Positions 23,294 through 60,198 of a stretch of 64,000 bases of DNA are shown here, in pieces. Origin of the DNA: Candidatus Woesearchaeota archaeon (GTDB taxonomy: Archaea; Nanobdellota; Nanobdellia; Woesearchaeales; ARS49); the NCBI GenBank assembly GCA_038891615.1, contig JAWADY010000001.1:170952-234951 (forward strand). The letters are read 5' to 3'. Below the pieces are notes generated by a model. That model ran no database searches. It was not told the origin of the DNA and saw only the letters and a program-made list of their open reading frames with translations. A program made the translations under genes and the position numbers. Within the stretch, counting starts at the first letter, position 1. Each line of letters starts with the position of its first letter.

Positions 23294-23435
23294 GCCTCGG
23301 TAGTCTAATGGCTAGGATAGAGCCCTGTCGACGCCAAATCCAAATTGGCCAATGGCTTTTGATGGACTAGCCTGACGCGTGGTTACGCGTTGCGACAGAC
23401 CGGCTCTGATGCGGGTTCGAATCCCGCCCGGGGCG
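23294..23435 (+). tRNA. tRNA-Asp (anticodon GTC) with 70-nt intron
   Basis: Acceptor GCCTCGG/CCGGGGC. Anticodon stem GAGCC..GGCTC. Exon loop CTGTCG + C38 (GTC anticodon, G37/C38). T-arm GCGGG-TTCGAAT-CCCGC. Discriminator G73 as in tRNA-Asp. Intron at 23331-23400. Confidence 0.7.
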
Positions 23436-30000: not shown

Positions 30001-30110
30001 CCACCTGGTAAGTAATCCTCATTATTTCCCCTGATTACTTCATAGCCAAGGCTGCCCAAAACTGACAAAGCAAATTCTTCAACATCCGATTCATGGATTG
30101 CTTTTATCAT
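27006..30110 (-). CDS. hsdR: Type I restriction enzyme R subunit
   Basis: 1034 aa. Walker [17 protein letters not shown] box [11 protein letters not shown], HsdR N-terminal nuclease region. Confidence 0.9.
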
Positions 30111-30511
30111 TTCATCATCTTCTTAAATTTCAAGATTAAATTTTTCAATTGTTCCACAACAACCTCTGCTTCTTCCTTTTCAAGCTTTTTTCCATAATAA
30201 TTTACAGCGTTTCTAGTTTTTCTTAAATTATCAAAAATGTCAGCTTCCCTAGATAAATTTAATATTTCTTTTAGAAAAGCTGTGTAGCATTCATGATTAT
30301 AAATTTTGAATCCTTTTTTAATAGGCAATGCTTCTAAAATCTCCCTTAATGAATCGTACAATAAAGAAATTTTGCTTATAAGAAATTCATCAGCCAAAGA
30401 ATCAGTAGAGTTAAATTTTATTTCTGCTGTTTCTAATAAAGATATTATCATATTTTTATCCTCTTTCGTCTCTTTTGCAATTCTTTGTTTTAAGCATTCT
30501 CTCCAGTCCAT
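30107..30511 (-). CDS. HEPN-like protein, putative partner of the adjacent MNT
   Basis: 134 aa, all-alpha. [12 protein letters not shown] resembles the HEPN Rx4-6H box, but His appears replaced. Gene order and 2-nt spacing after the MNT gene are typical of MNT-HEPN modules. Confidence 0.45.
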
Positions 30512-30512
30512 C

Positions 30513-31025
30513 TTACCAGTTCCCTTTTATTTTGAAACCATTTAATATATTTTTAAGCAAATTTTCACTTTTTACATCTTCAATTCCTCTAAAAACAAAA
30601 ATCTGTATTCTCCTTTTTAGCAATTTTTCAAATTTCTCAAGATTAATTTCTTTTTTCGTTGGTGTAAAAATTGCAAGATCAATATCAGAATCAATCTTTG
30701 CTTCTCCTTTTGACAAAGAGCCAAAAAGATAAACTATTGGAGTTAATAAATTCTTTTCCAATTCTTTCAATAAGCCGGAATCTTCTAATATTTTTTTCCA
30801 ATAAATTCTTGATAACTCTACGAAAAGCTCAGAATCCTTATTTACAAAATAATAATTATAAATCTTCTCTTTTTCTTTTTTGAGCAAGCCTTCTTTATAC
30901 AAGTTTTCAAGAATCTTTGAAGCTGTCGGCGGGCTTATTTTTTGAATTCTTGCATACTCGCGAACATTAATCCGACTATAGCAATCTTCAAAGAAAGGCT
31001 TCAAAGTGTTAAATATTTCTAACAT
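30513..31025 (-). CDS. minimal nucleotidyltransferase (MNT) with N-terminal wHTH
   Basis: LFGSLSKGEAKIDSDIDLAIF is the GS..DxD pol-beta NTase motif. N-terminal REYARIQKISPPTASKILENL HTH-like segment. Confidence 0.65.
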   Translation of the reverse strand: MLEIFNTLKPFFEDCYSRINVREYARIQKISPPTASKILENLYKEGLLKKEKEKIYNYYFVNKDSELFVELSRIYWKKILEDSGLLKELEKNLLTPIVYLFGSLSKGEAKIDSDIDLAIFTPTKKEINLEKFEKLLKRRIQIFVFRGIEDVKSENLLKNILNGFKIKGNW

Positions 31026-31125
31026 ATGTTAAAAATAATTAACATTTCTATTTAAATCTTTTGAAAAATAAACCTCAAAATATATGTTAAAAATAATTAA
31101 CAAGTGTTAAAAAATATTAACATTT
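31026..31125. promoter_or_regulatory. three copies of a 20-nt palindromic operator-like repeat (ATGTTAA-N6-TTAACAT) upstream of and overlapping the MNT start codon
   Basis: Copies at 31026-31045, 31084-31103 and, degenerate, 31105-31125. The arms are exact reverse complements. Confidence 0.4.
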
Positions 31126-31130
31126 TTGTA

Positions 31131-32510
31131 TTAAGCAGATTTTTTAATCTCCCTTTCCATCTCTTTTATCATCTCAGCAGGCACTCTAATTTTGCCAGAC
31201 ATAAGTTTAGGAAGGAGAGAATCGCGAAGTTGGGAGAAGGTGAGGGATTCTTTTAAGTTATTATAAATTCGATTATAGATAATAGTTAATATATTTTCAA
31301 AAATATCTAAAACTTTTTTTTCAGGTATTAAAATTTTTGTTGATTTAATGTGATTTAAATTAATTATTGGCATAGTGCTTCCTGAAGATATTCTTTCCCA
31401 ATATTTCTCTTCGGATAGTCTTTTAAGGAAGATAAATAAATAGAATCTTCCTATTTTGTTTTCGTCTATTGTTATTTTTGCTAAACGACTTACTATTACA
31501 GCCTTATCATAAATATCAGTCATAATCCCTAGTAATCCTAGAGTCCCCGTTTTTGATATAATTATATCTCCTTTTTTAACAGAACTCCTTTTAACTTCTT
31601 GAAATTTTTTTTCTGATATAAAATGCTTAAATGGCTTATATAAAGGATAACCTTCCAAGTATTCCATTTCGATAATAGGAATTCCAGAATTTTGATATTC
31701 TGTTATTTTCATTTGTGTTCCGAATGGTCCATCGACTATTGAATTTTTCTCATCAGAGGATATATCTTCGATTTTCCCAACCCTCCACCCCTTAGGTATC
31801 TCTTTGCCGAGCTCTTCATTATAAACCATTTCTCCGCCAGAGCTTTTGTAAGGCTTACCCTCTTCATTCGGAAACTCAAAATCAACAAACCAGTGCTTGA
31901 AAATTGCCTGGCCAATTGCCTCAAGGGTTTTGTTCATTCGCTGGTTGAGTTCGATCTTATCATCAAATGCCGAAAGAACTTTAGCAATGGCGCGTTGCTC
32001 GGGGAGGGGCGGGATAGGAAGTTCTACATCCTTAAAAGTGTTTGTAGTTATGGTTTCAAAAACAGTTCCATAAGATACAGATCTAATCTTATTTATCGAG
32101 TTTTTAATCGAATAATAGAGGTATATTACATCATATTCTTTTTTTGGTTGTAAACCATAACATGTCTGATTAAAAGTCATCGGCTCTGGTAATAATGCTA
32201 TTGCACCGACAGTCCCTCTCGAAGTAATTACAATTGTATTTTTTGGATGGATTTTTGCATTGCTATTCTTTACTCCCTCTTCGGTTATTGTTCTTTCTGT
32301 AACTGTTACATATCGCGACTTAACATTTGCAATATCCCTTGCAGTTGCCCATTTAAATTTTCCATCCCAAAAATATTTAATTTCTGTTTTAGGGGTTCCC
32401 CCTAATGAAATATCGCATGTTTCACTAATAGATTTAACCTCCCAATCCTCAGGGATCATTCCGATTTCAGTTTGTTTGAATTTGGGTTTATTTTGGGTTT
32501 GAGGGTTCAT
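31131..32510 (-). CDS. hsdS: Type I restriction-modification specificity subunit
   Basis: Two target-recognition domains separated by conserved repeats. N-terminus MIPEDWEVKSISE is typical. The start was chosen at Met 32510 (MNPQTQ...). The ORF track extends to 32609. Confidence 0.8.
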   Translation of the reverse strand: MNPQTQNKPKFKQTEIGMIPEDWEVKSISETCDISLGGTPKTEIKYFWDGKFKWATARDIANVKSRYVTVTERTITEEGVKNSNAKIHPKNTIVITSRGTVGAIALLPEPMTFNQTCYGLQPKKEYDVIYLYYSIKNSINKIRSVSYGTVFETITTNTFKDVELPIPPLPEQRAIAKVLSAFDDKIELNQRMNKTLEAIGQAIFKHWFVDFEFPNEEGKPYKSSGGEMVYNEELGKEIPKGWRVGKIEDISSDEKNSIVDGPFGTQMKITEYQNSGIPIIEMEYLEGYPLYKPFKHFISEKKFQEVKRSSVKKGDIIISKTGTLGLLGIMTDIYDKAVIVSRLAKITIDENKIGRFYLFIFLKRLSEEKYWERISSGSTMPIINLNHIKSTKILIPEKKVLDIFENILTIIYNRIYNNLKESLTFSQLRDSLLPKLMSGKIRVPAEMIKEMEREIKKSA

Positions 32511-34095
32511 TTTTAACCACCATAAGTAATATACAGTTGTTATTGTTGTCTGGCACTTTGATAATCTCAATATTTGGCATTTTTGTCCTTTCTTGAAGTG
32601 ATTTAACAATTGTTTTTATTCTATCATCATCAAACTTAGAAATAGGAATAGGTTCAAATTGTTTTGTTTTTTCATTTGCACCAATGATATATACCTTTAT
32701 ATTAGACTCCTTCACCTTTTTACTAAGGTCGCTAGCAAAATAAGAAACTATTTCATCGTTACTACCTGAAAAAACATCCGAAGATTTCAATTCTAGTATT
32801 TCGTTTTCAGTATTTACAAAACTAATGTCAAAAGTTGAATTTTCAAATATCTTTTTAGATAGGCAATTTAAAAAATAACAAATAGGTTTATCTTCATTCT
32901 CTATGGCTAATAATTTTAAAATAGAGCCCAATAAAATACTATTAAATGAGTCTCTTATTTGCATTTTTTCATAATAATCTAAAAGTATTTTACTTAATTC
33001 TTTCTGTAGCTCGTTATAAATCTCCATGTTTTTTATTTTAATTGAGTTTGCGGATATTCTACAGCCTGCATGATAAACTCTGAAAGATTCGTTATTCAAT
33101 AATTTAGTTTTAATTTCTTCTAAGAAACTTCCCCGAATTTCTATGCTATTGTCTGAAAATAGTATTAGGAAGTTAGGATTTGTCTTTTTAATTATCACGT
33201 TGCCGTCTTGTTTTACAACATTATTCTTATCATCAAATATTTTTTCCTGATATGGAATGATAGAATTTTTTAACTTTATGTATTCTTCATTATAATAACT
33301 CAGATTATATCGTTTTGCTAAAAAATCTTGTACAAAATCATCATAATTTGTATATGGCTTCCTACCAACTTTGACTAATGACAACGGTATTCTTTCTATC
33401 GGAGCAGGTAAAATTATTTGTTTGTCCTTGACCTTAAACGCTTTTTCTTCTATAAACTTTTTCTCGAAATCGTCATCACTTAATTCTAAAGAAAAAGGAA
33501 CCCCGCTTACTTCACCACAAAATTTATTTTTACCGCCCAAATATTCAAATGCCACTTTTTGAGGTATACCTAACCAGTTAGCAAAGAACACAGAAGGATT
33601 AGTTTCATAAAAAATAACATCAATACTATCTTTCTCATTTTTAAAGTAAACAAATCTCAGGATATTATCTTTATCAAGCATTCTGTCTATAACCTCCCAT
33701 TTGGGTGTAATGGTTTCCTCACCAAAGAGGCTATGACAAAGTATGACAAATTCGGATGTGACTATACAAATCGCATATTTCTCTTCCATCCTCATTCTGG
33801 TGTTCATTTCGTCGCTAAAATCGTTAAGTAATTCTTTTGCGTCTCTGTCATCTATTAAAGGATAAGAGGAAATCAAATTTTTAATCCAAATTTGACAATT
33901 CTCCTTTAATTGAATTTCATCAAATTTTTTTCTTTTACCTAAATTTAATAACGAATTAACAACCTTCGTTATTTTATCTTTATCTACTTTTCTGGTTATT
34001 TTATCTTGGTTAATATCATTCTCAATTACTTTCTTTGAATATACGAATGTTGGCTCTCCCTTATTTTGATTTGTAATCATTATTACACACTCCAC
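32488..34095 (-). CDS. hypothetical 535-aa protein embedded between hsdM and hsdS (no recognisable motif; Asn/Lys/Ile-rich)
   Basis: Long ORF that overlaps hsdM by 13 nt and hsdS by about 23 nt, which implies translational coupling within the Type I R-M operon. No P-loop or nuclease motif seen. Confidence 0.5.
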
Positions 34096-35606
34096 CCCAG
34101 CATCTCCAAATTTCTTTTTATTTCTTCATCTAGCTTTTTGCTCTCTTCCATTTGCTGTTTGAGTTCTGCTGTGAGTTTTTTCATTTTTTCTTCAAAAACT
34201 TCTTCTGGCTCTTCTTGTTCTTCAAAGCCGACATAACGGCCTGGTGTTAAAATGAAATTATTTTTTTCAACTTCTTGTAATGAAGCAGATTTGCAAAAAC
34301 CAGGGATGTCTTTATATCCAAGTTTGTTTTCTCCTCTCCATGCATGGTAAGTATCGGCAATTTTCTTTATTTCATCATCAGTTAATTCTCTATGTCTTCT
34401 ATCAATCATTACGCCCATTTTTCTGGCATCGATAAACAGAATCTTTCCTCGTCTATCTTTGAACTTGTTATCTTTTTTATCACGAGCAATAAACCATAAA
34501 CAAGCTGGAATCATTGTGTTGTAGAACAGCTGCGATGGCAAAGCGACAATACAATCTACGAGGTCTGCTTTGATAATATTTTTTCTTATTTCTCCTTCGT
34601 TAGAAGTCATTGAGCTTAAAGAGCCGTTAGCAAGAACAAAACCAGCAATTCCTGTTGGTGATAAATGATGGATAAAATGCTGTACCCATGCAAAATTGGC
34701 ATTTCCTTTTGGTGGAACACCAAACTTCCACCTAACATCTTCTTGTAATAACTCGCCGCCCCAGTCTGAATCATTAAAAGGAGGATTTGCTAGGATAAAA
34801 TCAGCCTTCAAATCCTTGAATTGGTCGTCATGAAAAGAATCACCCCACTTAATGTTTGCGTCAATTCTTCTTATCGCAAGGTTCATTTTGCACAGACGCC
34901 ACGTTGTCTGGTTGCTTTCTTGACCATAAATTGAAATATCTCCAATCTTTCCACCATGAGCTTCAACAAATTTTTCTGATTGAACAAACATTCCTCCTGA
35001 ACCACAACAAGGGTCAAATATTCTTCCTTTGTATGGTTCAAGCATTTCAACAAGCAATTTTACAATGCATCTCGGTGTGTAGAACTGACCGCCTTTTTTG
35101 CCTTCTGCAGATGCAAATTGTCCAAGAAAATATTCGTAAACTCTTCCAAGAATGTCTTTGCTTTTGTTTTCTTTATCACCTAGCCCAATCGTGCCAATTA
35201 AATCTATTAGTTCTCCTAGGCGCTGCTTGCTTAATGCTGGCCTTGCATAAATCTTTGGGAGAACACCTTTTAATGAGGGATTATCCCTTTCGATATCCTC
35301 CATTGCATGGTCTATGAGTTCTCCAATTTCTGGCTTTTTTGCATTAGCCTGCAAATACTCCCATCGCGCTTCTTTTGGAACCCAGAAAACTCTTCTTGCA
35401 AGATATTCGTCAACATCTTCTGGATCAGCTTCTGGGTCTTTTTTTAATTCTTCATAAACTTCTTTAAAAGAGTCGGAAATGTATTTTAAGAATATTAAAC
35501 CTAAAACAACATGCTTGTATTCTGCAGCATCCATATTGCTTCTCAACTTGTCTGCAGCCTGCCAGAGCTTCTCTTCGAAACCTAAATTCGCACTATTAGT
35601 TTTCAT
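34083..35606 (-). CDS. hsdM: Type I restriction-modification N6-adenine DNA methyltransferase subunit
   Basis: Motif [15 protein letters not shown] and motif IV LANPPFN. HsdM N-terminal domain. 507 aa. Confidence 0.9.
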
Positions 35607-38264: not shown

Positions 38265-38377
38265 GGGCCGGTAGCTCAACCCGGTAGAGCAGCGGACTTT
38301 TAGCGCAAATAGCATGTTACTTAAAGTGCAAAGTGTAAGCAATCCGTTGGTTGCGGGTTCAAATCCCGTCCGGCCCG
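38265..38377 (+). tRNA. tRNA-Lys (anticodon TTT) with ~39-nt intron
   Basis: Acceptor GGGCCGG/CCGGCCC. D-arm GCTC/GAGC. Anticodon stem GCGGA..TCCGT is interrupted after CTTTTA (intron 38303-38341). T-arm GCGGG-TTCAAAT-CCCGT. Discriminator G. Confidence 0.7.
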
Positions 38378-48027: not shown

Positions 48028-49440
48028 TTGGAAATGTTCAAGATGTCAAAAGGGCTCATTTTTGTGCTACTTGCAATAATCTTTGCAACATCAGTCTATG
48101 CCACGGCTTCTCTTAACTTTCCTACTGTTGCACTTGGAGGGCCATCACAAGAACGCAATAAAAATGCTTCCACTTCTGTTACAATAACAAACACTGGAGA
48201 TGTAACACTCAGCAATTTGACATTTTCAACAAATGCTGACGCAAAGTATGGTGTGACATTTTCAGGAAGCTGTATAAATGCACAATTGGCATCAGGCGGA
48301 ACATGCACACTGACAACATCTGCTAGCGTCCCAAAAGATTTTGATGCGGTTGATTCTTCAAGCCTTCAAGAAAAGGCATTTCTGATAGGTACAATAACCG
48401 CATCGGCTAATTATTCCTCTGGAAATGGCTCGGTAATAATAACGACAACAACAAACCTGACACTGCAAGCAGAGAATCAACTTGAACTTCGCAAAGTCAA
48501 GGTAATTGTTAATGGCATTGAGGATTCTGTCAGCGACGGCGATACTGTTAGAAAAATAAAGCCGGGTGATGAAATAGATATCGAGATAACCGTAAAAAAT
48601 AACTTTGACGATTCAAAAAACGATGTGACCATAGAGAATGTTGAGGTTAAGGCAAAAGTTGATGATAATGACCTTGATATAGATGAGTCTGAAGATATAG
48701 GCGATTTAGATGCTGACGACTCTGATACAATCAGCTTCAACAACCTTCTTGTTGACGAGGAGGCTGACGGAACTTATGACCTAGTCATAAGCGCAACAGG
48801 AAGGGATGAAAATGGCGCACTTCACGCTGACAAGATGACTGTAAAGCTAAAGGTTGAGCGCGAAACACATGAAATCAAAATAACAAAGGCATTACTTACA
48901 AACAGCAAGCTTGCATGTGTAGAAGGCAGCATTACGGACACAACCGCAAGGATAAGCTTTGTAAACATTGGCAAACGCGATGAAAAAGAAGTTGCCATTT
49001 CTGCATCAATCGACAAGCTTGGCATTACAGCAAGAAAAGATGGCATAGAGCTTGAAAAGGACGACAGCTCGAGTATAAGCCTTTTACTTGACATTCCGGA
49101 TAGCGCAAAAGCTGGAACATATGATGTTACAGTGACAAGTTATTATAACAATGATGTGCCATCAGACACAAAGACAATCCCACTGCAGATAGAAAAGTGT
49201 GAGCAGCCACAAAACGCTTCTACGACCACAACAGCAACACCAACCACCCCAACAGCACCAACTACAACAGCGACAACTCAAGCCATAACAACACCAACCA
49301 TCAGGCTTACAGAAAAAGCACAAAAGAGCACTCCATTTACAGAGACCCCAGCATATCTCTGGCTGCTGGGTGGAATAAGCGCAGGGATTGTGATTGTTAT
49401 ATTCCAACTCATCAGCAAGCTGCTGCTGGTGAGGAAGTAG
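48028..49440 (+). CDS. cell-surface protein: signal peptide, beta-rich domains, Thr/Pro-rich linker, C-terminal TM anchor with basic tail
   Basis: 470 aa. N-terminal hydrophobic leader. ASTTTTATPTTPTAPTTTATTQAITTPT linker, a probable glycosylation region. C-terminal LWLLGGISAGIVIVIFQLISKLLLVRK. Confidence 0.5.
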   Translation: MEMFKMSKGLIFVLLAIIFATSVYATASLNFPTVALGGPSQERNKNASTSVTITNTGDVTLSNLTFSTNADAKYGVTFSGSCINAQLASGGTCTLTTSASVPKDFDAVDSSSLQEKAFLIGTITASANYSSGNGSVIITTTTNLTLQAENQLELRKVKVIVNGIEDSVSDGDTVRKIKPGDEIDIEITVKNNFDDSKNDVTIENVEVKAKVDDNDLDIDESEDIGDLDADDSDTISFNNLLVDEEADGTYDLVISATGRDENGALHADKMTVKLKVERETHEIKITKALLTNSKLACVEGSITDTTARISFVNIGKRDEKEVAISASIDKLGITARKDGIELEKDDSSSISLLLDIPDSAKAGTYDVTVTSYYNNDVPSDTKTIPLQIEKCEQPQNASTTTTATPTTPTAPTTTATTQAITTPTIRLTEKAQKSTPFTETPAYLWLLGGISAGIVIVIFQLISKLLLVRK

Positions 49441-49651: not shown

Positions 49652-50935
49652 ATGAAACCAACTGCCTTCTTTTTTGCATTATTTGCCATGATATTTCTCA
49701 TTCAAATAGGCTCAGTTGGCTTCGCTAAAATAGAAATAAGGCAAGTGCTTTATGATCCTATTTCTTCTGAAAATGGTGGCGAGGCAGTTCAACTTCATAA
49801 CCCAGAGGACGAAGATGTAGATATCAGCGGCTGGGCGCTCTCAACCGAAGCAAGCAAGTATGACGCAAGGTTGCCTGAAGGTTCTGTTATTCCAGCCGGA
49901 GGTTATTTTCTTATTGCAGATACTGGCTGGTCTAGCGCTAAAGATGACCCAAACTGGCCTGAGGCTGATTATGAAGAATCGATAAATTTGTACAACAGCA
50001 ACTCCGGAGTTGCCCTTCTCAAGGCAGACGGCACGGTTGTAGATGCGGTTGGATGGGGCGAGCTAAGCCAGATAAAGGCAGGTCTTTGGACAGGACGACC
50101 TGCAAAAGAGGTTAGTGAAGGCAAGGTTCTGTTAAGGACAAAAAGCACAGAAGATAATGCTGTTGATTTTGTGGAAGCAGATGCGGACTTTGGAACAATT
50201 CCACAAAATATAACAAAGCTAGAGCTAAGTATGGATATTGAAGGAGGAATTTTGATAGAAGAAATTGAAATTAGCCCAGATGAACTAGATAAACCAGGTG
50301 TTCAGATTTACCCTCTAGCAGGCGGAACCAAGAATCTGACAATAAAAGTTAAAGTTGCAGCCAGCCAAACAGAAATTGAAAGGCTGACCCTAACAGCGGC
50401 CCTTGCAAACAAGACTATAGCATTGCATATGATGGCCCAACAAAATGAAACAATAGCTTTATACGAAGGCACAATTCCAATAGAATTCACAAAAAAGCCA
50501 TCCAATTATAGCATCACAATAAATTCGTTTATAGACCTCATTCAAATTGGAGAAGCCACAACGAGTTTTGAATGGATGCCGCTTGCGTCTTTTAAAATAA
50601 TCGGCGAAAACAAAAAGATTAAGATAAGCGCGGCGCCCGGTGAACTGAAGAACATGCCTAATGCACTTGAAATAATAAATAATGGAAATGTTCCTATAGA
50701 CATAGCTGCTTCGAGTACAGGGTTTGTGATGCAAGGAACAAACCAAACACAAAAAGTTGCCGCGACCAACATAAGAATAAACTCAAAAGGCCTTGCCAAC
50801 ACCCCAAGAACAATACCCCTTGCAATTGCACCTGGCGATGTCGCAAGGCTAAATCTCAGCATAAATATTCCGCAAAAGGCAAAAAAAGGGAGCTACATTG
50901 GAGAGATAAAGTTATGGACAATACCAACGAAATGA
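49652..50935 (+). CDS. secreted protein with N-terminal lamin-tail-domain (LTD)-like region
   Basis: Signal peptide, then IEIRQVLYDPISSENGGEAVQLHNPEDEDVDISGWAL...GGYFLIAD resembling the LTD consensus (I.EV.YNP...E.VEL.N....VDLSGW.L). Confidence 0.5.
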   Translation: MKPTAFFFALFAMIFLIQIGSVGFAKIEIRQVLYDPISSENGGEAVQLHNPEDEDVDISGWALSTEASKYDARLPEGSVIPAGGYFLIADTGWSSAKDDPNWPEADYEESINLYNSNSGVALLKADGTVVDAVGWGELSQIKAGLWTGRPAKEVSEGKVLLRTKSTEDNAVDFVEADADFGTIPQNITKLELSMDIEGGILIEEIEISPDELDKPGVQIYPLAGGTKNLTIKVKVAASQTEIERLTLTAALANKTIALHMMAQQNETIALYEGTIPIEFTKKPSNYSITINSFIDLIQIGEATTSFEWMPLASFKIIGENKKIKISAAPGELKNMPNALEIINNGNVPIDIAASSTGFVMQGTNQTQKVAATNIRINSKGLANTPRTIPLAIAPGDVARLNLSINIPQKAKKGSYIGEIKLWTIPTK

Positions 50936-51278
50936 GTCGTGAGAAGCCTATTTTCCTTTGTTTCTAAATTTCATGTAGCAGCTGTTCTTTATCCAGCAAT
51001 TCTTACACTCTTCAAGCTGCTCATGCTTCTTCCCAAAACAAGCATCATCAGAATATTTTAGGAACTTTACAGCCATTTGATGCAAGATGTTAGGGCAGTA
51101 TTTAAAGATTGCTGCGCTAAAAGGCAACGAGTCACAAAAACTGATAACCAGAACCTTAATGCGACCTTGTGAAAACCAAACATTTATAAAGCCAAAAAAA
51201 TAGGTTAGAATGCGTGAAAGCTCTACTTCTAGTAGAACTTACGCATAACTAAAACTAACAAAGGTGTAAAACAAGAAA

Positions 51279-51431
51279 ATGGCATATGGATTCGGGGGAA
51301 GTTTTGGCCCTAGACAAATGCACAAGGCTACTTGCTCCGAGTGTGGTAAGGACTGTGAAGTTCCTTTTAAGCCACGCGAGGATAGACCGGTCTATTGTAG
51401 GGACTGCTTCCAGAAGCACAGGAAGTTCTGA
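51279..51431 (+). CDS. small zinc-ribbon protein (50 aa; CxxC-x17-CxxC), not in ORF track
   Basis: MAYGFGGSFGPRQMHKATCSECGKDCEVPFKPREDRPVYCRDCFQKHRKF. AAGGTG lies 13 nt upstream of the ATG. The overlapping 87-aa ORF in the track (51286-51549) was rejected. Confidence 0.4.
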   Translation: MAYGFGGSFGPRQMHKATCSECGKDCEVPFKPREDRPVYCRDCFQKHRKF

Positions 51432-51545
51432 AAAGAGCAAAGGTTCAAAACGCAGAAATTTTCACAATAAAGATTTTAGGCTGTTTTTAGCCATGCTTGG
51501 TGACGCATCTGATTTAGTCATAGAACTTTTTAGCAAGCGAATTGT

Positions 51546-52364
51546 TTAGCGATAGGATGGGCGGATTTTTTCAACAATTCCACGCATAGTTGCAATAAAA
51601 TCTTCTGCGTCTTTTAGATAGCGTGCGTAGTCATTGCCACTTATTTCTTTTAACTCACGATGGGTTATCTGCTTCTGGAGCTTATAGAAATTTGCCATAA
51701 TTTCTGCGTAACGCTTTGAAACAATCCCCTTCTTTACAAGCTTCTCATAAATCATCTCAGCAACATGCGCAGGGCTTGGTGGAATCTCTCCAAGATGCAT
51801 GAGTGCCGCATGCGCAGAGTCAATAACAGCCCAATAAAGGTCTAGGGTCGCTTGAAGGATATGCCATTTTGAATTGCTTATGGTATAGGGTGCGCGCACA
51901 AGGTAATTCCAAACAGATTCCTTTGAAGGCCTTATTCTTCCCTGCCTTAAAAGCAACTGGAGTGGGTCAAAAAAGCCAGAGTCTATCAACGCCACGCCAT
52001 CGCGAAGTATGTTTATGATGACAGGGTCGCCTGCCCGAACATATTCCCAAAATGTTGTAAGTTTTAGAGACATCACATGAAGCTTAGGACTTGTCTCTCC
52101 AATTGCCTTTTCAACGATTATCCTGTAGGTTTGCACAAGCTCAGGAGAAAGCACAATTGAAACATCGTCAACAACAATGAGAATGTCTATGTCGTGTTCC
52201 TTGCCTGTTCTACGTGCCGCCTCTCCAAAAAGGATAATAGCCTTTATGAAATTTCCGAACTCTGCATATACCTTTTTGGCAAACTTTCGTGCAAGCTCAA
52301 GGTTTTCGGTTGGATATGTTCCAACGGTCGGAGGAAGTCTGTGTGTTATCTCAAATCTTGCCAT
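51546..52364 (-). CDS. pol-beta-superfamily nucleotidyltransferase domain protein with C-terminal helical (HEPN-like?) domain
   Basis: ILFGEAARRTGKEHDIDILIVVDD is the NTase G[SE]x9-13DxD motif. About 270 aa with an alpha-helical C-terminal half. Confidence 0.5.
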   Translation of the reverse strand: MARFEITHRLPPTVGTYPTENLELARKFAKKVYAEFGNFIKAIILFGEAARRTGKEHDIDILIVVDDVSIVLSPELVQTYRIIVEKAIGETSPKLHVMSLKLTTFWEYVRAGDPVIINILRDGVALIDSGFFDPLQLLLRQGRIRPSKESVWNYLVRAPYTISNSKWHILQATLDLYWAVIDSAHAALMHLGEIPPSPAHVAEMIYEKLVKKGIVSKRYAEIMANFYKLQKQITHRELKEISGNDYARYLKDAEDFIATMRGIVEKIRPSYR

Positions 52365-52424: not shown

Positions 52425-54224
52425 CTATTCAAACGGAATTCCAAAGTATGACATTTGCCATTCCCTCTGCACTGGAAGAAACTCACCCGTAGCAAAATAT
52501 GGTGGTTGTGTTCTGCCAAAATAGCTGTGCTCTATGTCTGCCCAATTACCAATGCCATAGACCTGGCCACCAAAGCTCCGTAGCGCAGCATGCCAAGCCC
52601 TTATGTCGTGATGAGCAGGCTCAACAATTGGCTTTATCTCAACCTTTGCCTTTTTCATTTCCTCGAGAAATTCTTTTATTGGAGCCTTGCCGCTGCCAGG
52701 AGGCAAATGCTCATCATAATAGCCAAAGTTATCACTCATCTGGACATGACCTATTATTCCTTTTTTGAAAAGCTCTCTGACAGAGTCTATTAACCATTTG
52801 TTGAAGCGTTTATCGGCTTGTTCAAATGTTTCTCCTGGTTTTGGTTCGAAAAACTTTCTCCAAGTATATGCATGACCAATGTCAAAGGTTGCTCCTATAT
52901 GCTTCTCAGCTATTTTCAGCGCTTCGCTTTTTGAAATACCTCTCTCTTTTGCAAGTAACTGGGCCATCTTTTCTCTTGACTTCTGAATCAGCTCGGCGAG
53001 CTCGCTTGGATGGCTGCCATAATATTCTGGGAGCCATGGTTCAGGTGAGACTAAAATGGGCCTTTTGAGTCCTTTGACTTGTGTTTGGTCATATGCATAA
53101 AGTCCTGCTCTTGCTATTGTATCAGTTGTTCTCTCTAAACCAACATCTTTTAGGGGTCTGAGCATCTTTTCTTTCATCCTCAAATTCTCCAGATGCTCTT
53201 GTGAACTTAATGCAGATTTCTGCATCCATTCTATATCTACCTCAAGTCTTCTTTTTTGTTCCTCAAGATGTTCAATAATGTTGACACCAGGCGGGGGAGC
53301 CATCTCAGCAGCCCTTAGGAACTCCTCGATGAGTTTTTCACCACCAGGTTTTTTTGCCTGGACCAATAATTCATTTATAGATTCAAGTTTTTTCCTACGC
53401 TCTTCTGCTTCTGCTGTCCAACGAGTAGCCTCTGCCTCATAGATTAACTTTTGCGATTCAAAAAAATGCTTTAACCAAACCTGTTCCGGCTTTAATATTC
53501 CTTCATCTAAAGCTCTTGCAATCTCTGGGTCTCTCTTCCGTTCTTCATTTACGACATCTTCAAACCTTTTCGGCACAACGACTATTTTACCTTGCTCGTC
53601 ATAAGCATAGACAGGAACCTTTTTCCCTTCTTTCACTTTCCAGTCAACTATTTTTGGTTCGAAGATAGGGTGGACTTTTGGAATTGCTTCGATATTTCCT
53701 GTCTCAGCGTCCGCAACCCAAACATACTCTTCTTTCTCAGCCTCTTCTGGATATGTTGCAAACTTGTTGTCAACTTCTGCAATAGGTCTTTTCCACTCCC
53801 CGATATGAAAAACAACTGCGCCTCCTTCTGCTGTATCAGCTGCAAAATCTATTGTTCGCTCTATCTCGTGCAGCACTTCTTCTGCAACTTCTCGGCTGAA
53901 ACCATGTCTTGTCAAACCAGCAAAACCCATCACTCCCGTTGTACCATGAACAGAAAGCTCGACCTTGTTCACCTTAGCAAGCTCACGTATAGCCTCCCTT
54001 TCTTCCTTGCCGTACATCTCAGGCGTTGTTGCCTTGCCAGCCATTGAACCTTTTGCAGTGCCTGTAAAGCCTAGCTCAACGACTGTTGCACCTTCTCGAA
54101 TCCTTGCCTTCAAGGCTTGTAGTTGGGCTTCAAAAGGAGGGGTGCTAACCCCAAACTGAGCAGGCTCCCCTCTAAAGTATTCCCTATCCATCGAATGATA
54201 GTAGTTTGGAAAGTAAGTTCCCAT
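52425..54224 (-). CDS. xylose-isomerase-like TIM-barrel (sugar phosphate isomerase/AP endonuclease 2 fold) protein split by ~250-aa Lys/Glu-rich coiled-coil insertion
   Basis: N-terminal VVELGF...VELSVHG. C-terminal IGATFDIGHAY and GHVQMSDNFGYYDEHLPPGSG match the TIM-barrel metal-ligand boxes (H..D...G..DEHL.PG.G). The central region is coiled-coil-like. Confidence 0.45.
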   Translation of the reverse strand: MGTYFPNYYHSMDREYFRGEPAQFGVSTPPFEAQLQALKARIREGATVVELGFTGTAKGSMAGKATTPEMYGKEEREAIRELAKVNKVELSVHGTTGVMGFAGLTRHGFSREVAEEVLHEIERTIDFAADTAEGGAVVFHIGEWKRPIAEVDNKFATYPEEAEKEEYVWVADAETGNIEAIPKVHPIFEPKIVDWKVKEGKKVPVYAYDEQGKIVVVPKRFEDVVNEERKRDPEIARALDEGILKPEQVWLKHFFESQKLIYEAEATRWTAEAEERRKKLESINELLVQAKKPGGEKLIEEFLRAAEMAPPPGVNIIEHLEEQKRRLEVDIEWMQKSALSSQEHLENLRMKEKMLRPLKDVGLERTTDTIARAGLYAYDQTQVKGLKRPILVSPEPWLPEYYGSHPSELAELIQKSREKMAQLLAKERGISKSEALKIAEKHIGATFDIGHAYTWRKFFEPKPGETFEQADKRFNKWLIDSVRELFKKGIIGHVQMSDNFGYYDEHLPPGSGKAPIKEFLEEMKKAKVEIKPIVEPAHHDIRAWHAALRSFGGQVYGIGNWADIEHSYFGRTQPPYFATGEFLPVQREWQMSYFGIPFE

Positions 54225-54233
54225 TTTTAATAA

Positions 54234-55007
54234 TCAGTGTCTATGTTTTGCTACTTTTTGATTGGAAAGCTCGCCGCCTGGGTGCCCAAGGTATTGTGCG
54301 ACAACTTTAAGCTCTTCTTTTTCGCTTAAAAATCTTTCCTTAGAATTTCGTGAAACATAGCTTGTCATTGGTGCAAAACTTTCAAATGCATGAAAATAGC
54401 GCTCAAAAGCAACCTGCTCTTCAAAGCCAAGGCTCTCTCCACGCAATACCATTTCCTTTATTTTTTCTATCTTTTCAGCTGTTGCAGGCTCTATGAGCTT
54501 GTAAAAATCACTTTTGAGTTCCTCAAATGTTTTTGAATAGATTATTGCCTTTGCCTTTTCTTCACTCTTTTTTTCAACTCCAGCGCCAGCAACTTCCTCC
54601 AAAGATTCCTTTGAAGAAGTTTCAGGAGTTTCCTTTTCAGCCATCTGCTCTCCTATCGACTCGACGGGCTCTTCTGACTTCTCAGGTGTCCTTGTAAAAA
54701 GCTCTTCAATTGAAACAGCCTTTGCTTGCGGGATTAACCTTCTTAACTCTTCAATTTCACTAAGTGCTTTTGTCCCAATTGCCACAGCTTCAGCTATCTG
54801 GGCCTTTCTTTCTTCTTCAAGCCTAGCAAGCTCAGCCTCAAGCTCCTTAACAGCCTTGATCTTTTCCTCAGGCGGTAAGCGTTTTATCTCCGCAAGCTTG
54901 CTACGAATTAGGTCTTCGATAGTCGTGGTAGTTTTTGGCATAATAACTAAGCTGTTAAAAGGCTTTTTAAACATTCCTTTTAAAGAACCATCAAACTCTA
55001 ATCCCAA
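54234..55007 (-). CDS. hypothetical Glu/Lys-rich coiled-coil protein
   Basis: 257-aa ORF overlapping its neighbours by 10 nt on each side (operon). Confidence 0.4.
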   Translation of the reverse strand: MGLEFDGSLKGMFKKPFNSLVIMPKTTTTIEDLIRSKLAEIKRLPPEEKIKAVKELEAELARLEEERKAQIAEAVAIGTKALSEIEELRRLIPQAKAVSIEELFTRTPEKSEEPVESIGEQMAEKETPETSSKESLEEVAGAGVEKKSEEKAKAIIYSKTFEELKSDFYKLIEPATAEKIEKIKEMVLRGESLGFEEQVAFERYFHAFESFAPMTSYVSRNSKERFLSEKEELKVVAQYLGHPGGELSNQKVAKHRH

Positions 55008-56494
55008 CTAATCATTCCATGAGCTTTTTTGAAAAGCTTGTAGTTAAGCCAGAGTCTTTTGCGGGCATCATTTTCTGCTTCTTTTTGTTCTTTCTTCAGT
55101 TCTTCGCTGGTTATCTCTTCCTTTTTGCCCGGCTTGGCTTTTGGAAAAAAAGATGCAAAGCCCTGTGCAAGAGCAACAAATGGTTCAAGAATCCCAGGAC
55201 TAGCAGGTCTGACTTCTTTTTTTGCCTCTTCTTTCTTTTTTAATCCCCATGCCTCTTCAAGGTACTTCTGCAAATCTTCTCCTATAGACCGTATTGCTTC
55301 CATGAGCGAGGCGTCAGCATTTGCAAGTAGGTCCAGTTCTTCTGATGCGCGCATTTTCTTATACTCATCAATTTGTTCCGGTGTCCAGGCGTAGCTCCTC
55401 CAAGTTATTACAACCTCACCAACATGAATAGGACCTTTGTGATAAGGTTCGACATAAAAGCTCATTGAAGGCCTTGTTCGGTAGTCAAGATGTATTAAAC
55501 AGCAGCTGTTGACTTTTCTGTTTCCGGCAGGCAATCTTCTTGCAAGTATTTCTATTTCAACAAGCGAGCCTTCAAAGGCTGCAATTAACTCAGGCTCGCT
55601 CATCTTTGAGACATCAAGGGAGAGTCTCTGTATTGTCCTTAAATAAGGCTTTATCCAATGCATGTACAGCATTATTGTGTCGTACTGCTGCCTAAGGTAA
55701 TGCAAAGTGAAGTTTCTCCTTGTCTTTAATTCACCATAGGTCGCCTTTTTCCAACGGTAATAACTTTCAAGCTTGCGTTTTAGCATAGACTTGAGAGTTT
55801 CAGAATATGGCAGCTGTGCAATTCTCTTAAAGAAAGTCTCATCCTTTTCTCCGGGTTCGATTCGTAGCTTGAAAAAAAGGTCTGGTAGCGTAGTAAACTG
55901 GGCTTCAAGTGCAAGACCTAAAACAGATGTTGGAGATTTCGCGCCTCCCTCAACTAAGTCAACATATTGCCCTTTTAAGGCAATCTCAGCCGCTTCTGCC
56001 TCATCACCCTTCTCAAAACTTTTTTCATAATAACCAAGCTTTTCATCGATAATTCTTATGTCCCTAACCAAGAGAATGACTCCTTTGAATATGTCATGAA
56101 TTATTTTAAGAAATTGGGCAACCTTGTCCTGTTGTAGACCAAGCTTTTGCGCAGCTGCGCCAAAAAAGGCAGAGTGTTCGCTTGCAGCAAAGACGTCTGT
56201 TATCTTTTCGATAACTGGAAATGCAAGATCGTTCCTAAGGTTGTCTAGCAGCCAAAAATACATGTTCTCAATTGATTGATGCTGGCTTTCGTAAACAAGG
56301 CGATATTTGGATAACGGCTTTGGCCAGTCAACGACAATGAGCTGGTCTTTTGCAATCTCTAGCTCGTCACGTTTATATTTTTCTTTCGAAAAATATTCCT
56401 CTTTGTAGTTTATTGATGGTGGAAGCCATCCCAAAAAGCCAGCAGCACCATAACTTCCAGTTTTCTCCGCTCGTTGTTCAGCCATCGCTACCAT
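54998..56494 (-). CDS. hypothetical 498-aa protein
   Basis: Long ORF with no recognisable motif. Second gene of a four-gene minus-strand operon. Confidence 0.45.
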   Translation of the reverse strand: MVAMAEQRAEKTGSYGAAGFLGWLPPSINYKEEYFSKEKYKRDELEIAKDQLIVVDWPKPLSKYRLVYESQHQSIENMYFWLLDNLRNDLAFPVIEKITDVFAASEHSAFFGAAAQKLGLQQDKVAQFLKIIHDIFKGVILLVRDIRIIDEKLGYYEKSFEKGDEAEAAEIALKGQYVDLVEGGAKSPTSVLGLALEAQFTTLPDLFFKLRIEPGEKDETFFKRIAQLPYSETLKSMLKRKLESYYRWKKATYGELKTRRNFTLHYLRQQYDTIMLYMHWIKPYLRTIQRLSLDVSKMSEPELIAAFEGSLVEIEILARRLPAGNRKVNSCCLIHLDYRTRPSMSFYVEPYHKGPIHVGEVVITWRSYAWTPEQIDEYKKMRASEELDLLANADASLMEAIRSIGEDLQKYLEEAWGLKKKEEAKKEVRPASPGILEPFVALAQGFASFFPKAKPGKKEEITSEELKKEQKEAENDARKRLWLNYKLFKKAHGMISWD

Positions 56495-56516
56495 CTTTTA
56501 TTCCAAGTCACAGCCT

Positions 56517-57032
56517 TTATTGGCAAGCTTCTAATGGTTCTATGATGATTGCTTTGTCACCACAGTAAATTGTATCAGCAATCCCTTTTCCTGTTCTTAT
56601 CTTTGGAATGAGTTTGAGTTGTAATGGCGTGCCAATTTCGCCAAAGTCAAAGGAAGTTTTTATGGCACCAAATGGTTTCAATGGTTGCTCAAGTATTTCC
56701 TTTTGAACTATTCCCTCCCTTCCAACAACTCGCGCCAAAATATTATCCAAACCAAGCGAAGGACCATTTTCCACAAAAATCACAATGCTGTCAGCAGTAT
56801 AGCAAGCTTGAGGCACTCCTTTTATGGTTATTACACCAAGAGCGGCTACAGCGCAACCAGCTCCAAGCTCTTGCGCGCCTATTACAAATTCTGCCTTTTG
56901 TTCAACAAATTCTTCGCCCCAACTCATGACAACTGCACCAAGAGCTATCGCAAATGTGACAAGAAGGACTGTTGCAATAAGAGGGCTAAGCCCTAGCTTT
57001 CCAATCGTCCGTCTCGAACGCAATAAAGCCAA
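56517..57032 (-). CDS. archaeal type IV pilin-like protein (class III signal peptide)
   Basis: N-terminus MALLRSRRTIGKLG / LSPLIATVLLVTFAIALGAVV matches the archaeal pilin/archaellin N-terminal consensus ([KR]G-x-SPvIATvLLIaI.V.LAAV). About 140 aa mature. Confidence 0.55.
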   Translation of the reverse strand: MALLRSRRTIGKLGLSPLIATVLLVTFAIALGAVVMSWGEEFVEQKAEFVIGAQELGAGCAVAALGVITIKGVPQACYTADSIVIFVENGPSLGLDNILARVVGREGIVQKEILEQPLKPFGAIKTSFDFGEIGTPLQLKLIPKIRTGKGIADTIYCGDKAIIIEPLEACQ

Positions 57033-57144: not shown

Positions 57145-57723
57145 ATGGAAACAGAGGAACTTATAGCAAGGCAGAAGCAAGAATGCATTTTCTGTCACAT
57201 AGTTGCTGGAAAGGTTGGTTCAAGAAAGATATATGAAGATGAAAGGCTTATTGTAATTCTTGACATAAATCCAGCAAATCCTGGACATATGCTTGTCATG
57301 CCAAAGGAGCACTACAGCGTGTTACCTCAGCTTCCTGAAGACGATGTTGCTAGAATTGGTTTTGTTGTTAAGGCACTGTCGCAGGCTTGTCTCAAAGCAC
57401 TTGGTGCAAGAGGAACAACAATCTTTGCAGCAAATGGTATTGCAGCTGGACAAAGGGCATCCCATTTCATGATTCACATCATTCCAAGGCACCCAAATGA
57501 CAATGTCAAGATTATGCTTCCTGAAGAAGAGCTTGCAAAGGAAGAACTTGAAAACTGCACTCAAAAGCTGAAAGCAATTTTTTCACAAATTTCTGGAATG
57601 CCAACATTACAGCAAGAGACAAACTCAAGCAATAACCCTAAGGGCGAAACAAAAAACACAGCAGTGCTTAACGAAGTTACCAAATTCTTGCTCAAAAAAG
57701 GAAATAAAAATGGTAGCATGTGA
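57145..57723 (+). CDS. HIT-family (histidine triad) hydrolase with C-terminal extension
   Basis: CIFCHIV N-terminus. Histidine triad HFMIHIIP (HxHxHxx). Confidence 0.75.
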   Translation: METEELIARQKQECIFCHIVAGKVGSRKIYEDERLIVILDINPANPGHMLVMPKEHYSVLPQLPEDDVARIGFVVKALSQACLKALGARGTTIFAANGIAAGQRASHFMIHIIPRHPNDNVKIMLPEEELAKEELENCTQKLKAIFSQISGMPTLQQETNSSNNPKGETKNTAVLNEVTKFLLKKGNKNGSM

Positions 57724-58225
57724 GATTTGTGAGGCGATAAAAAAACCAGAATCAAAGCTTTACGAAGAAAAAAATTTTGCAGTTATTCTTCCTAGCAGGC
57801 CGGCTGTACCTGGCCATATCCAACTTGTGCCAAAAGAACATAAGGTAATTCTTGAAGAGCTTACAAACGAAACCGTAGCTTTTCTTTTTGCAAAAGCTAG
57901 ACTTTTTCTCATGGCGCTTTTTGAAGGGCTTAATTGCCATGGGACAAACCTTTTGATAATGAATGGCACTGCTGCAGGTCAATCTGTCGCGCACATAGCC
58001 GTGAACTTAATTCCAAGGTTTGAAGATGATGGTCTTGAACTAGGTTGGCAGCCAAAAAGGCTTTCTGAAGAAGAGATGTCAACCGTAGAGCTAAGGTTGA
58101 AAGAAGAAGCTACAAAAATAACAATTGTCGAAGAGGAAAAAAAAGAAGAAAAACAAATTACAATAGAAGCTCCAAAAAAATTTGATGAGGAATGGCTTAA
58201 ACAGCAGCTTAGAAGGATTCCTTAG
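57710..58225 (+). CDS. HIT-like paralog with degenerate triad and Lys/Glu-rich C-terminal tail
   Basis: Same fold signature (EICEAI, PAVPGHIQLVPKEH). The triad position reads HIAVNLIP (HxAxNxx). Overlaps the upstream HIT gene by 14 nt. Confidence 0.5.
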   Translation: MVACEICEAIKKPESKLYEEKNFAVILPSRPAVPGHIQLVPKEHKVILEELTNETVAFLFAKARLFLMALFEGLNCHGTNLLIMNGTAAGQSVAHIAVNLIPRFEDDGLELGWQPKRLSEEEMSTVELRLKEEATKITIVEEEKKEEKQITIEAPKKFDEEWLKQQLRRIP

Positions 58226-59286: not shown

Positions 59287-60198
59287 TCAAAATAGTAGGA
59301 AGATGAAATTTCCAAACAGCAAGGCAGCTATATAAGCTATTAAAAAGCTTGGGACAAAAGGAATTCCTTCTTTTACAAGAACTCTAAAGTTTTTACCAAG
59401 CAAACCCTTTTGCTTAAGCTTTATTAGTAACATTATTTTTCTCCTGCTTATACCAAGCTCTGCAGGACCGGCTATCTTTTTTCCCCTAAAAATGACATCT
59501 TTCACAATCCAATCGCCTTCTGTAAGCTTTTCAGGCGGAAGCCATTTTAGAAGGCAACTTGTTTCAACAGCTCCAACAACCAGCGAAAGATAAAACAAAG
59601 ACAAAACGAGTAAGGCAGCTGCGGCTGCTATGAGCCATAATGCACTTTCTGCAAGCACGATTGCAATCAAAAGCAGCATCACAGAAAAGGCAATAGTCAC
59701 AAAGCGGAAGTTCTTGTAAACACCTTTTTTCATCATCCTTGCTGCTTGATTCTTAACCTTCCCCCAATTCTTGACAGCAAGAATAAAAACCCAAAGCAAG
59801 CCATAGGCAGCTCCAACAAAGATAAGATTGATAAAGAATGCAACGGCTTTGCTTTCCAGGCTTGGCGCAAAACCAATCAGGCTTCCAAGGCCTATCAACA
59901 GCTTTACATCCCCGCCACCCCATTGCCCAAAGCGGTACATTAATAAAGAAAGTATGGCAAAAACAATCACCCCTGTAAAGCCCTGAACAATTGGCCTTAA
60001 GTTAAAAGTCGCCACGCTACTAATCAATCTTATTCCAAGCCCTGAAAATAAAGCAGCATAGCTGAGCCAGTCAGGAACCTCTCTTGTTCTCAGGTCTGAA
60101 AAGGCAGATGCTGCAAGGATGAAAAGCCCTGTTCCTTCAAGCAACTGCTCAATCATTTTGGCGCCCCTTTTTACAAAACTCTTGCTATGACTCTGCAA
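59287..60198 (-). CDS. type IV prepilin peptidase (A24 family; archaeal PibD/FlaK-like) with C-terminal extension
   Basis: First catalytic Asp box SAFSDLRTREVPDW. Second Asp box GGGDVKL (the GxGDxKL consensus). Multi-TM. Confidence 0.6.
   Translation of the reverse strand: MQSHSKSFVKRGAKMIEQLLEGTGLFILAASAFSDLRTREVPDWLSYAALFSGLGIRLISSVATFNLRPIVQGFTGVIVFAILSLLMYRFGQWGGGDVKLLIGLGSLIGFAPSLESKAVAFFINLIFVGAAYGLLWVFILAVKNWGKVKNQAARMMKKGVYKNFRFVTIAFSVMLLLIAIVLAESALWLIAAAAALLVLSLFYLSLVVGAVETSCLLKWLPPEKLTEGDWIVKDVIFRGKKIAGPAELGISRRKIMLLIKLKQKGLLGKNFRVLVKEGIPFVPSFLIAYIAALLFGNFIFLLF

Follow-up and report, generated by a model that had tools for sequence, protein, structure and literature searches.

Four co-directional open reading frames (ORFs) on the minus strand of a Candidatus Woesearchaeota metagenome-assembled genome raise the question of whether a pilin-like protein, a TIM-barrel protein, and two proteins encoded between them belong to one functional system. 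The ORFs, designated g1–g4, lie in a 64-kb chromosomal window, which is the whole stretch of DNA that was analyzed. g1 (56517-57032) encodes an archaeal type IV pilin-like protein of 171 residues from a TTG start. It is followed by g2 (54998-56494), a 498-residue member of an unnamed family without a library match, g3 (54234-55007), a Glu/Lys-rich coiled-coil protein of 257 residues as an ORF and likewise with a TTG start, and g4 (52425-54224), a 599-residue MJ1311-type xylose-isomerase-like TIM barrel. A preliminary description had listed all four ORFs at these positions, where they are indeed present, and had taken them for a four-gene operon encoding a new surface appendage or adhesin with the TIM barrel as its tip or anchor. 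Comparison with related loci gives a different answer: the real unit is very probably g2-g3-g4, with the pilin excluded.

The ORFs of the cluster are real genes, because each has tens to hundreds of full-length homologs. The same holds for a fifth co-directional gene (51546-52364, minus strand), which starts 60 nt downstream of g4 and had been overlooked. It encodes a 272-residue protein with a Pol-β nucleotidyltransferase-like N-terminus and a helical C-terminus, referred to as NT-like. TATA-like boxes and a T5 run are found in the spacer between g4 and NT-like. Among database proteins, QXV29_02075 matches the g2 product at 100% identity and QXU88_00620 matches the g1 product at 99%. The spacings first reported, 22 nt between g1 and g2 and 9-10 nt between g3 and g4, are right for the listed starts, but the 10-nt overlap between g2 and g3 exists only with the ORF start of g3. 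Alignment of orthologs places the start of g3 most likely at Met23 (coordinate 54941), which yields a protein of 235 residues and replaces the overlap with a 56-nt spacer.

Conservation of the triad and the place of g1

At least 579 close homologs of g2 exist, and relatives occur in 383 stretches of a one-genome-per-species collection. The family is compact and comprises 756 clusters at 50% identity. All named proteins among the listed g2 homologs are called hypothetical, except for one with a zinc-ribbon label, and all organism names given for them are Woesearchaeota, Nanoarchaeota, or Nanoarchaeia. Gene linkage was assessed in two samples of 80 loci each, species-representative genome loci seeded with g2 and metagenome loci seeded with g4. 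The title 'uncultured Methanosarcinales archaeon', which many records of the genome sample bear, is probably a placeholder, because those loci share the same synteny.

g2, g3, and g4 are tightly linked in both samples. Among species-level loci whose sequence extends at least 3.5 kb beyond the downstream end of g2, 47 of 57 carry g4 on the same strand within 5 kb. The complete triad is present in 36 of the 51 loci with at least 4.5 kb downstream of g2, arranged as g2-g3-g4 in 25 and as g2-g4-g3 in 11; the incomplete loci contain g2-g4 (5), g2-g3 (3), or g2 alone (7). Viewed from g4, 29 of the 36 metagenome loci with enough flank carry g2 within 1.35 kb upstream on the same strand, and a further three carry it nearby on the other strand. 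g3 remains directly upstream of g4 in four loci (L019, L026, L031, and L071) despite genes intervening between g2 and g4. In two of the three g2-g3-only loci (L036 and L062), g4 is ~8 kb from g2, yet g3 lies just upstream of g4. Clustering of neighboring ORFs identified g3 (52 of 80 loci) and g4 (45 of 80) as the commonest neighbors of g2.

The triad is embedded in a long co-directional block with the order NFACT-R-like, YjeF_C-like, Na+/H+ exchanger-TrkA_N, YhbY, g2, g3, g4, S-adenosylmethionine (SAM)-methyltransferase-like, and NT-like. The Na+/H+ exchanger was found in 33 loci, NT-like in 31, the NFACT-R-like gene in 29, the YjeF_C-like gene in 26, the methyltransferase in 23, and YhbY in 22. 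The three genes could accordingly be independent housekeeping genes that form no module and are adjacent by ancestral gene order, as at least eight other, unrelated families also keep their position and strand around g2. We consider this decidedly unlikely. No other family is as frequent a neighbor of g2 as g3 and g4, and their linkage persists at 43-51% g2 identity across the 80 species representatives. g3 swaps sides of g4 but stays adjacent to it in 11 of the 36 complete triads, and stays by g4 where inserted genes or ~8 kb part both from g2. That adjacency is kept while the order is swapped argues for selection on the triad itself. g2-g3-g4 is a robust conserved triad specific to Nanoarchaeia/Woesearchaeota.

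g1 behaves differently. Its relatives were found in 4 of the 59 g2-seeded genome loci having at least 3 kb upstream of g2, never directly adjacent to g2, and in 3 of the 80 g4-seeded metagenome loci. Where both are present, g1 is ~2-7 kb from g2 or g4 and once on the opposite strand. g1 adjoins g2, or is parted from it by YhbY alone, only in the window and in L086, a close relative that repeats the window layout: A24 prepilin peptidase, two HIT-family genes, the divergently oriented g1, YhbY, g2, g3, g4, and NT-like. Five further genomes were looked up directly for g1 homologs in addition to L086. In four of them (L088, L170, L171, and L172), no g2-g4 is present within 7-9 kb of the g1 homolog, which in L171 neighbors SecY and ribosomal protein genes. 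The g1 homolog of L087 is oriented divergently to a Na+/H+ exchanger/YhbY/g2 cluster that is devoid of g3 and g4. The preliminary description had itself named a lack of co-conservation elsewhere as the outcome that would speak against its proposal, and this is what was found for g1 relative to g2-g4 (4 of 59 and 3 of 80 loci). Of the proposed operon, the co-conservation of g2-g3-g4 stands and the membership of g1 does not.

The association of g1 with g2 is thus recent and local, and the window is a junction of two unrelated conserved gene blocks. Block A would consist of (UPP synthase)-A24 peptidase-...-HIT-HIT and the divergent g1, with g1 being an ordinary small pilin-like surface protein. 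Block B would be the g2-g3-g4 triad, often located after the Na+/H+ exchanger and YhbY and before the small methyltransferase and the NT-like gene.

In 22 related loci, the gene immediately preceding g2 is the RNA-binding gene CRS1_YhbY, which L086 has (9508-9810) between g1 and g2. A tblastn search found YhbY neither in the g1-g2 gap of the window (56495-56516) nor anywhere in the 64 kb.

The predicted location of the proteins also separates g1 from the triad. No N-terminal signal peptide, class III motif, or transmembrane segment was found in g2-g4, and g3 and g4 contain no hydrophobic segment. The single borderline Kyte-Doolittle window of g2 (1.63 at residue 125) falls inside a long amphipathic stalk helix. 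g2 contains two Cys residues, and g3 and g4 contain none. Judged by these features, g2, g3, and g4 look cytoplasmic.

The linkage and location data bear on the proposal that the four genes specify a new surface appendage, in which g1 would form the fiber, g2-g4 the shaft, tip, or anchor, and the TIM barrel an enzymatic tip. g1 is a true pilin-like protein, and its gene precedes g2 on the same strand across a gap of 22 nt that has no T-run or evident terminator; L086 keeps g1 upstream of YhbY-g2-g3-g4; and an A24 peptidase gene is nearby. However, g1 is absent from 55 of the 59 genome loci and 77 of the 80 metagenome loci carrying g2 or g4, and its homologs occur without g2-g4 beside HIT-HIT pairs (L088, L170, and L172) or ribosomal genes (L171). 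g2-g4 have neither export signals nor membrane segments, and no ATPase motifs. Archaeal type IV pili have PilB and PilC as their conserved assembly components (PMC6098224). No match to T2SSE or T2SSF (PilB/ArlI and PilC/ArlJ) was detected among the large ORFs of the window, in a scan that covered the second HIT gene, g1, and all ORFs with 180 residues or more except a shadow ORF inside the 16323-18392 gene (40 of 41). An appendage built from the four proteins is therefore highly improbable. The lead of a new pilus with an enzymatic tip is removed, and a concrete three-gene unit, present in ~380 species-level genomes, takes its place.

The TIM-barrel protein g4

g4 matches PF01261 (AP_endonuc_2) in two separate stretches with an E value of 2.7e-14 and a score of 53.9 bits against a cutoff of 31.1, the sole library match of g1-g4. 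Together with its (βα)8 fold, this match assigns g4 to the xylose isomerase-like TIM barrels. The AlphaFold model of g4 has a predicted local distance difference test score (pLDDT) of 85 and a predicted template modeling score (pTM) of 0.82, and is unconfident (pLDDT <50) at residues 1-21 and 553-599. A split TIM barrel with a large insertion had been recognized earlier and is confirmed by the model. The insertion, first described as ~250 residues of pure coiled coil, is composite and spans ~213 residues (approximately 145-357). It begins with a six-stranded β subdomain (167-219), continues with long helices (221-354), and sits between strand 135-141 and helix 358-383/strand 390-396. By its place in the model, the insertion would correspond to the β4-α4 loop and emanate from the catalytic face of the barrel. 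g4 homologs are 563-674 residues long and, with few exceptions among the 120 listed, align over 96-100% of the query, indicating that the insertion is a family trait. We found no paper linking Woesearchaeota with the TIM-barrel/coiled-coil architecture of g4.

The two tails of g4 are strongly conserved though predicted to be disordered. The conserved residues are Y8 and D13 in the N-terminal tail and Y556, W561, Y568-F569-G570, and P575 in the C-terminal tail. In 47 of 47 aligned sequences, the protein ends in an invariant Glu that follows a hydrophobic residue (L/F/M-E-COOH). This conservation suggests a docking tail or a tail that inserts into the active site.

The closest known relative of g4 in both sequence and structure is MJ1311 of Methanocaldococcus jannaschii, which was deposited as a 'D-tagatose 3-epimerase-like protein' (PDB 3WQO) and is tabulated as a predicted EndoIV homolog of that organism (PMC2770678). 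The g4 family profile finds MJ1311 at E=1.1e-8, and the two share the motif HVHxxDNxGYxDEH, in agreement with an MJ1311-like subfamily. MJ1311 contains 293 residues compared with 599 in g4, which adds the ~213-residue β4-α4 insertion and the conserved N- and C-terminal tails. All nine metal ligands of endonuclease IV are reportedly conserved in MJ1311.

The candidate metal ligands of g4 resemble those of endonuclease IV (Nfo of E. coli; PDB 1QTW), a three-metal apurinic/apyrimidinic endonuclease. A profile alignment by hhalign, which is not significant in itself (E=0.52), pairs D448 and H451 of g4 with D179 and H182 of Nfo, position 495 with H216, D504 and H506 with D229 and H231, and E535 with E261. 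The family alignment of g4 shows no variation at D448, H451, D504, and E535 and has His at positions 495 and 506 in at least 90% of sequences. H93 (in LSxH), H140 (VVxHxGE), and E395 (APEN) are also invariant and resemble by eye the motifs of Nfo H69, H109, and E145. The sequence identity of g4 is 13-22% to endonuclease IV structures and 12-15% to sugar epimerases. No endonuclease IV model is among the NCBIfam matches of g4 at E≤0.1. The insertion and the partner genes of g4 have no counterpart in Nfo, and no DNA-binding loops could be identified in g4.

Some members of the g4 family are named in databases as sugar isomerases or epimerases. g4 might accordingly isomerize or epimerize sugars or sugar phosphates in the metabolism of carbohydrates or envelope glycans, with g2 and g3 as scaffolds or regulators, a reading that we consider unlikely. 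All isomerase and epimerase equivalogs of NCBIfam score ~13 bits against cutoffs of 300-350, including hydroxypyruvate isomerase (13.1 bits, cutoff 353) and fructoselysine 3-epimerase (12.5 bits, cutoff 305). The active site of the epimerases consists of four residues, Glu-Asp-His-Glu. Beyond such a site, g4 conserves H93, H140, H451, D504, and H506, which appear to match the three-metal set of endonuclease IV and provide extra metal-ligand candidates compared with the ketose 3-epimerases and sugar isomerases of PF01261. Moreover, a small-molecule enzyme would not ordinarily have two coiled-coil partners or a macromolecule-sized arm of 213 residues at its catalytic face.

g2, g3, and a candidate complex

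The preliminary description found g2 and g3 unrecognizable. This assessment still holds: neither has an above-threshold match in Pfam, NCBIfam, PHROGs, or PADLOC, and the same applies to g1. The predicted model of g2 (pLDDT 81, pTM 0.71) is composed of a base, a stalk, and a tip. The base is an α/β structure with strands in residues 42-103 and 311-370, and the long antiparallel stalk is built from helices 111-159 and 232-299. The tip (residues 160-231) carries the most conserved motifs of the family, LKGxWIDxVEGG...FTTLPDLFF.

A fold search with g2 yielded no full-length match in PDB or BFVD. The nearest folds are those of PaxB/XaxB-type toxin subunits, prefoldin, the stalks of dynein and SerRS, and KA1-type α/β domains. 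These resemble g2 only in fragments of 60-140 of its 498 residues, at 4-16% identity. g2 is not assigned to any of these families, because scores of this kind would be expected from any long helical hairpin. The best hit of the g2 profile among PDB sequences, Vps4B (E=0.79), was rejected as coiled-coil noise. A HEPN_Cthe2314 match (E=0.019) was likewise dismissed, as 1 of 47 family members shows it, and so was an Etd1 match, which did not recur when 47 relatives of g2 and 29 of g3 were scanned. An exhaustive profile search for distant relatives of g2 listed 150 matches, all of them strong family members, and revealed no bridge to a known superfamily.

The g3 family is acidic and fast-evolving, with ~200 residues and a mean identity of 26% in the alignment. 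Its motifs are an N-terminal KKLSPEERIKxLKELE and PIPQxKAV. No consistent Pfam match was found among its members. Searches with a hidden Markov model grown iteratively from g3 hit (E≤1e-27) 32 of the 40 ORFs that are at least 140 residues long and located between g2 and g4, and in most loci the model recognizes the ORF of ~200 residues next to g4. In related loci, g3 is positioned between g2 and g4 or directly after g4. Profile-profile comparisons of g2 with g4, g3 with g4, and g3 with g2 revealed no relationship, showing that their coiled coils are not duplicated modules.

In L001/L043 and L087, where neither g3 nor g4 adjoins g2, the genes that come next encode small proteins, of 95 and 119 residues in L001/L043 and a zinc-ribbon protein of 98 residues in L087. 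One g2 homolog, P0118, is itself annotated as a zinc-ribbon protein. These small proteins hint at an alternative partner set.

A nuclease-like barrel with a nucleotidyltransferase and partner proteins could also be imagined as an anti-virus defense system or part of a mobile element. The NT-like protein matches the PADLOC candidate family PDC-S09 (E=4e-8), g2 gave the faint HEPN_Cthe2314 match, and there is a type I restriction-modification system at a distance of 17 kb. However, PADLOC and PHROGs scans of g1-g4 returned no family at E≤0.1, HEPN is confined to one of 47 members of the g2 family, and the guanine plus cytosine (GC) content of the g1-g4 cluster is the same as that of its surroundings. 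The stable housekeeping synteny across hundreds of species and the single ortholog at 43-60% identity are the opposite of patchy defense islands. On grounds of composition, synteny, and absence of matches, this reading was rejected as scarcely credible.

The preferred reading is that g2-g3-g4 encode a cytoplasmic, coiled-coil-scaffolded metallo-phosphoesterase complex specific to Nanoarchaeia, for which we see about an even chance. With the three-metal His/Asp/Glu set of endonuclease IV apparently retained, g4 would most likely hydrolyze a phosphoester rather than isomerize a free sugar. Taken by itself, phosphoester hydrolysis as the chemistry of g4 is held with a confidence somewhat short of even. 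The β subdomain and the antiparallel helical arm of g4 may serve as a substrate-recognition or docking arm at the catalytic face. g2, with its base, stalk, and conserved tip, and g3, as a coiled-coil adaptor, would bind this arm, the conserved unstructured tails, or both. The resulting hetero-oligomeric complex would position the enzyme on a large substrate, most plausibly a nucleic acid. That the three proteins associate physically is a proposition that could go either way, and a nucleic acid as the actual substrate of g4 is proposed tentatively and with considerable doubt.

Several points weigh against this reading. In such a long co-directional housekeeping synteny, adjacency alone is weak evidence, and part of the linkage may be inherited gene order; g2 has neither g3 nor g4 nearby in 7 of the 51 loci. 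With only 22 nt and no evident terminator between g1 and g2, the pilin gene and the triad may well share a transcript in this organism or its lineage. The physical complex is something we infer, and the profile comparisons revealed no similarity of the three proteins to one another or to known partners. The alignment with Nfo is not significant by itself (E ~0.5), and the six C-terminal ligands alone are aligned by the tool. A barrel-only g4 profile compared with Nfo by global and local hhalign left the N-terminal half unaligned, so that the three N-terminal ligands are matched at the level of motifs only. In addition, g4 of the window deviates at the position equivalent to H216, with Gln495 in place of the His that at least 90% of the family share. 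An identical Logan-assembled copy (P0121) covers this residue, which makes a sequencing error unlikely. Finally, the structure of MJ1311 is said to have no obvious DNA-binding groove.

Woesearchaeota and their relatives are abundant and uncultivated, with reduced genomes in which a large part of the conserved genes lacks a functional assignment. Confirmation of the complex and of its phosphoesterase chemistry would give three widespread 'hypothetical' families a function, and the MJ1311 branch of the endonuclease IV/xylose isomerase superfamily would gain its first functional handle. A more ambitious and rather doubtful possibility is an undescribed machine of Woesearchaeota/Nanoarchaeia, in which an Endo-IV-like three-metal enzyme with an acquired coiled-coil arm at its catalytic face would act in a fixed complex with two partners of new fold, a stalk-and-tip protein and a coiled-coil adaptor. 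Its task would be specific to the lineage, for example the processing or salvage of nucleic acids or phospholipid head groups from the host, on which these episymbionts with reduced genomes rely. For now, the triad is one more conserved DPANN unknown and not a demonstrated new system, and g4 represents a new architecture within a known superfamily.

A possible pilin unit and the surroundings of the cluster

Judged by its sequence features, g1 genuinely belongs to the archaeal type IV pilin-like proteins and carries a class III signal peptide. The N-terminus RRTIGKLG/LSPLIATVLLVTFAIALGAVV that had been taken for such a peptide is present and agrees with the family consensus. The processing-site region reads MALLRSRRTIGKLG/LSPLIATVLLVTFAIALGAVVMSW in the window, where a short basic N-terminus is followed by an H-domain of ~20 residues. 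The consensus of the family is KKG/VSPLIATVLLIAFSIALGAVVMSWGE, with P17, L18, A20, T21, L24, and G32 invariant in the alignment. The Kyte-Doolittle maximum is 2.69 at residue 18. The H-domain is followed by a β-rich ectodomain with four conserved Cys residues, for which no Pfam family was matched. The 118 homologs of g1 are ~160 residues long, and some are named 'flagellin-like' or 'archaellin/type IV pilin N-terminal domain'. TIGR02537 (arch_flag_Nterm) is matched by 27 of 28 aligned relatives at E≤0.01 (best 2.1e-7), and g1 of the window scores 13.5 bits (E=0.038), under the cutoff of 20.

Processing N-terminal to the H-domain is the defining property of archaeal prepilin peptidase substrates (PMC6098224). 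g1 shares with archaeal type IV pilins and archaellin N-terminal proteins (TIGR02537; UpsA-like) a Gly at -1, S/T-P at +2/+3, the basic N-terminus, the ~20-residue H-domain, a small β-rich ectodomain, and a syntenic A24 peptidase. It differs from them in lacking nearby pilB/pilC, in the below-cutoff score of the window copy, and in an ectodomain without a Pfam match.

The gene for the A24 prepilin/preflagellin peptidase (PibD/FlaK-like; 59287-60198, minus strand) is located 2.3 kb from g1, as noted before, and is syntenic with g1 in relatives. Its product matches PF01478 (Peptidase_A24) at E=5.4e-16 and carries the archaeal A24 C-terminal domain; the FlaK model is matched at E=4.5e-11, far below the equivalog cutoff. 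This peptidase belongs with g1, not with g2-g4, and probably cleaves g1 after Gly14. Two HIT-family genes (57145-57723 and 57710-58225, plus strand; PF01230, E=1.4e-17 and 7e-13) lie between them and are divergent from g1. The A24...HIT-HIT/g1 arrangement is shared by L086, L170, and L172, and an HIT-HIT pair is found directly beside g1 homologs in L086, L088, L170, and L172. In L170 and L172, the A24 peptidase and UPP synthase are 2-4 kb from the g1 homolog. The g1 neighborhood may constitute a small pilin/peptidase unit in Woesearchaeota, and the small pilin of this conserved arrangement may matter for cell-cell attachment in these symbionts.

The order of genes in the g1 neighborhood is UPP synthase, A24 peptidase, variable genes, HIT, HIT, and the divergent g1. 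A gene for a NosD/β-helix protein is next in line in L088 and L172.

Apart from its PDC-S09 match, the NT-like protein has weak Pfam matches to Polbeta and NTP_transf_2 (E ~1e-3) and no match among PDB sequences. Of the 41 loci with at least 9 kb of flank, 25 carry a homolog with 50-65% identity downstream of g2 and on its strand. NT-like is a frequent but looser downstream neighbor of the triad. It is more conserved than g2 or g4 across the same loci, and its stable synteny looks like that of a housekeeping gene.

Downstream of NT-like, ~600 bp (50935-51546) contain no ORF of at least 100 residues. A 42-residue Cys-rich ORF with a CxxC-like pattern is found at ~50950-51075 on the minus strand, and the matching position in L086 is occupied by an unrelated low-complexity gene of 194 residues. 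Two plus-strand genes converge on the cluster. The first (48028-49440) encodes a predicted surface protein of 470 residues with NPCBM_assoc/Ig-like repeats and a C-terminal transmembrane anchor, and the second (49652-50935) a predicted surface protein of 427 residues with a lamin-tail domain. They recur on the opposite strand near the cluster in 19 and 10 related loci, respectively. Just upstream of the cluster in the window are genes for RNA polymerase B''/B'/A'/A'' and ribosomal protein S7.

The type I restriction-modification system occupies 27006-35606 on the minus strand and comprises hsdR (27006-30110), hsdS (31131-32609), a 535-residue ORF overlapping hsdS (32488-34095), and hsdM (34083-35606). 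Its GC content is 0.30-0.36 compared with ~0.41 elsewhere, and this stretch is probably a horizontally acquired island. Three plus-strand Rfam tRNA matches of 113-142 nt without an ARAGORN counterpart (20165-20291, 23294-23435, and 38265-38377) are probably intron-containing archaeal tRNA genes.

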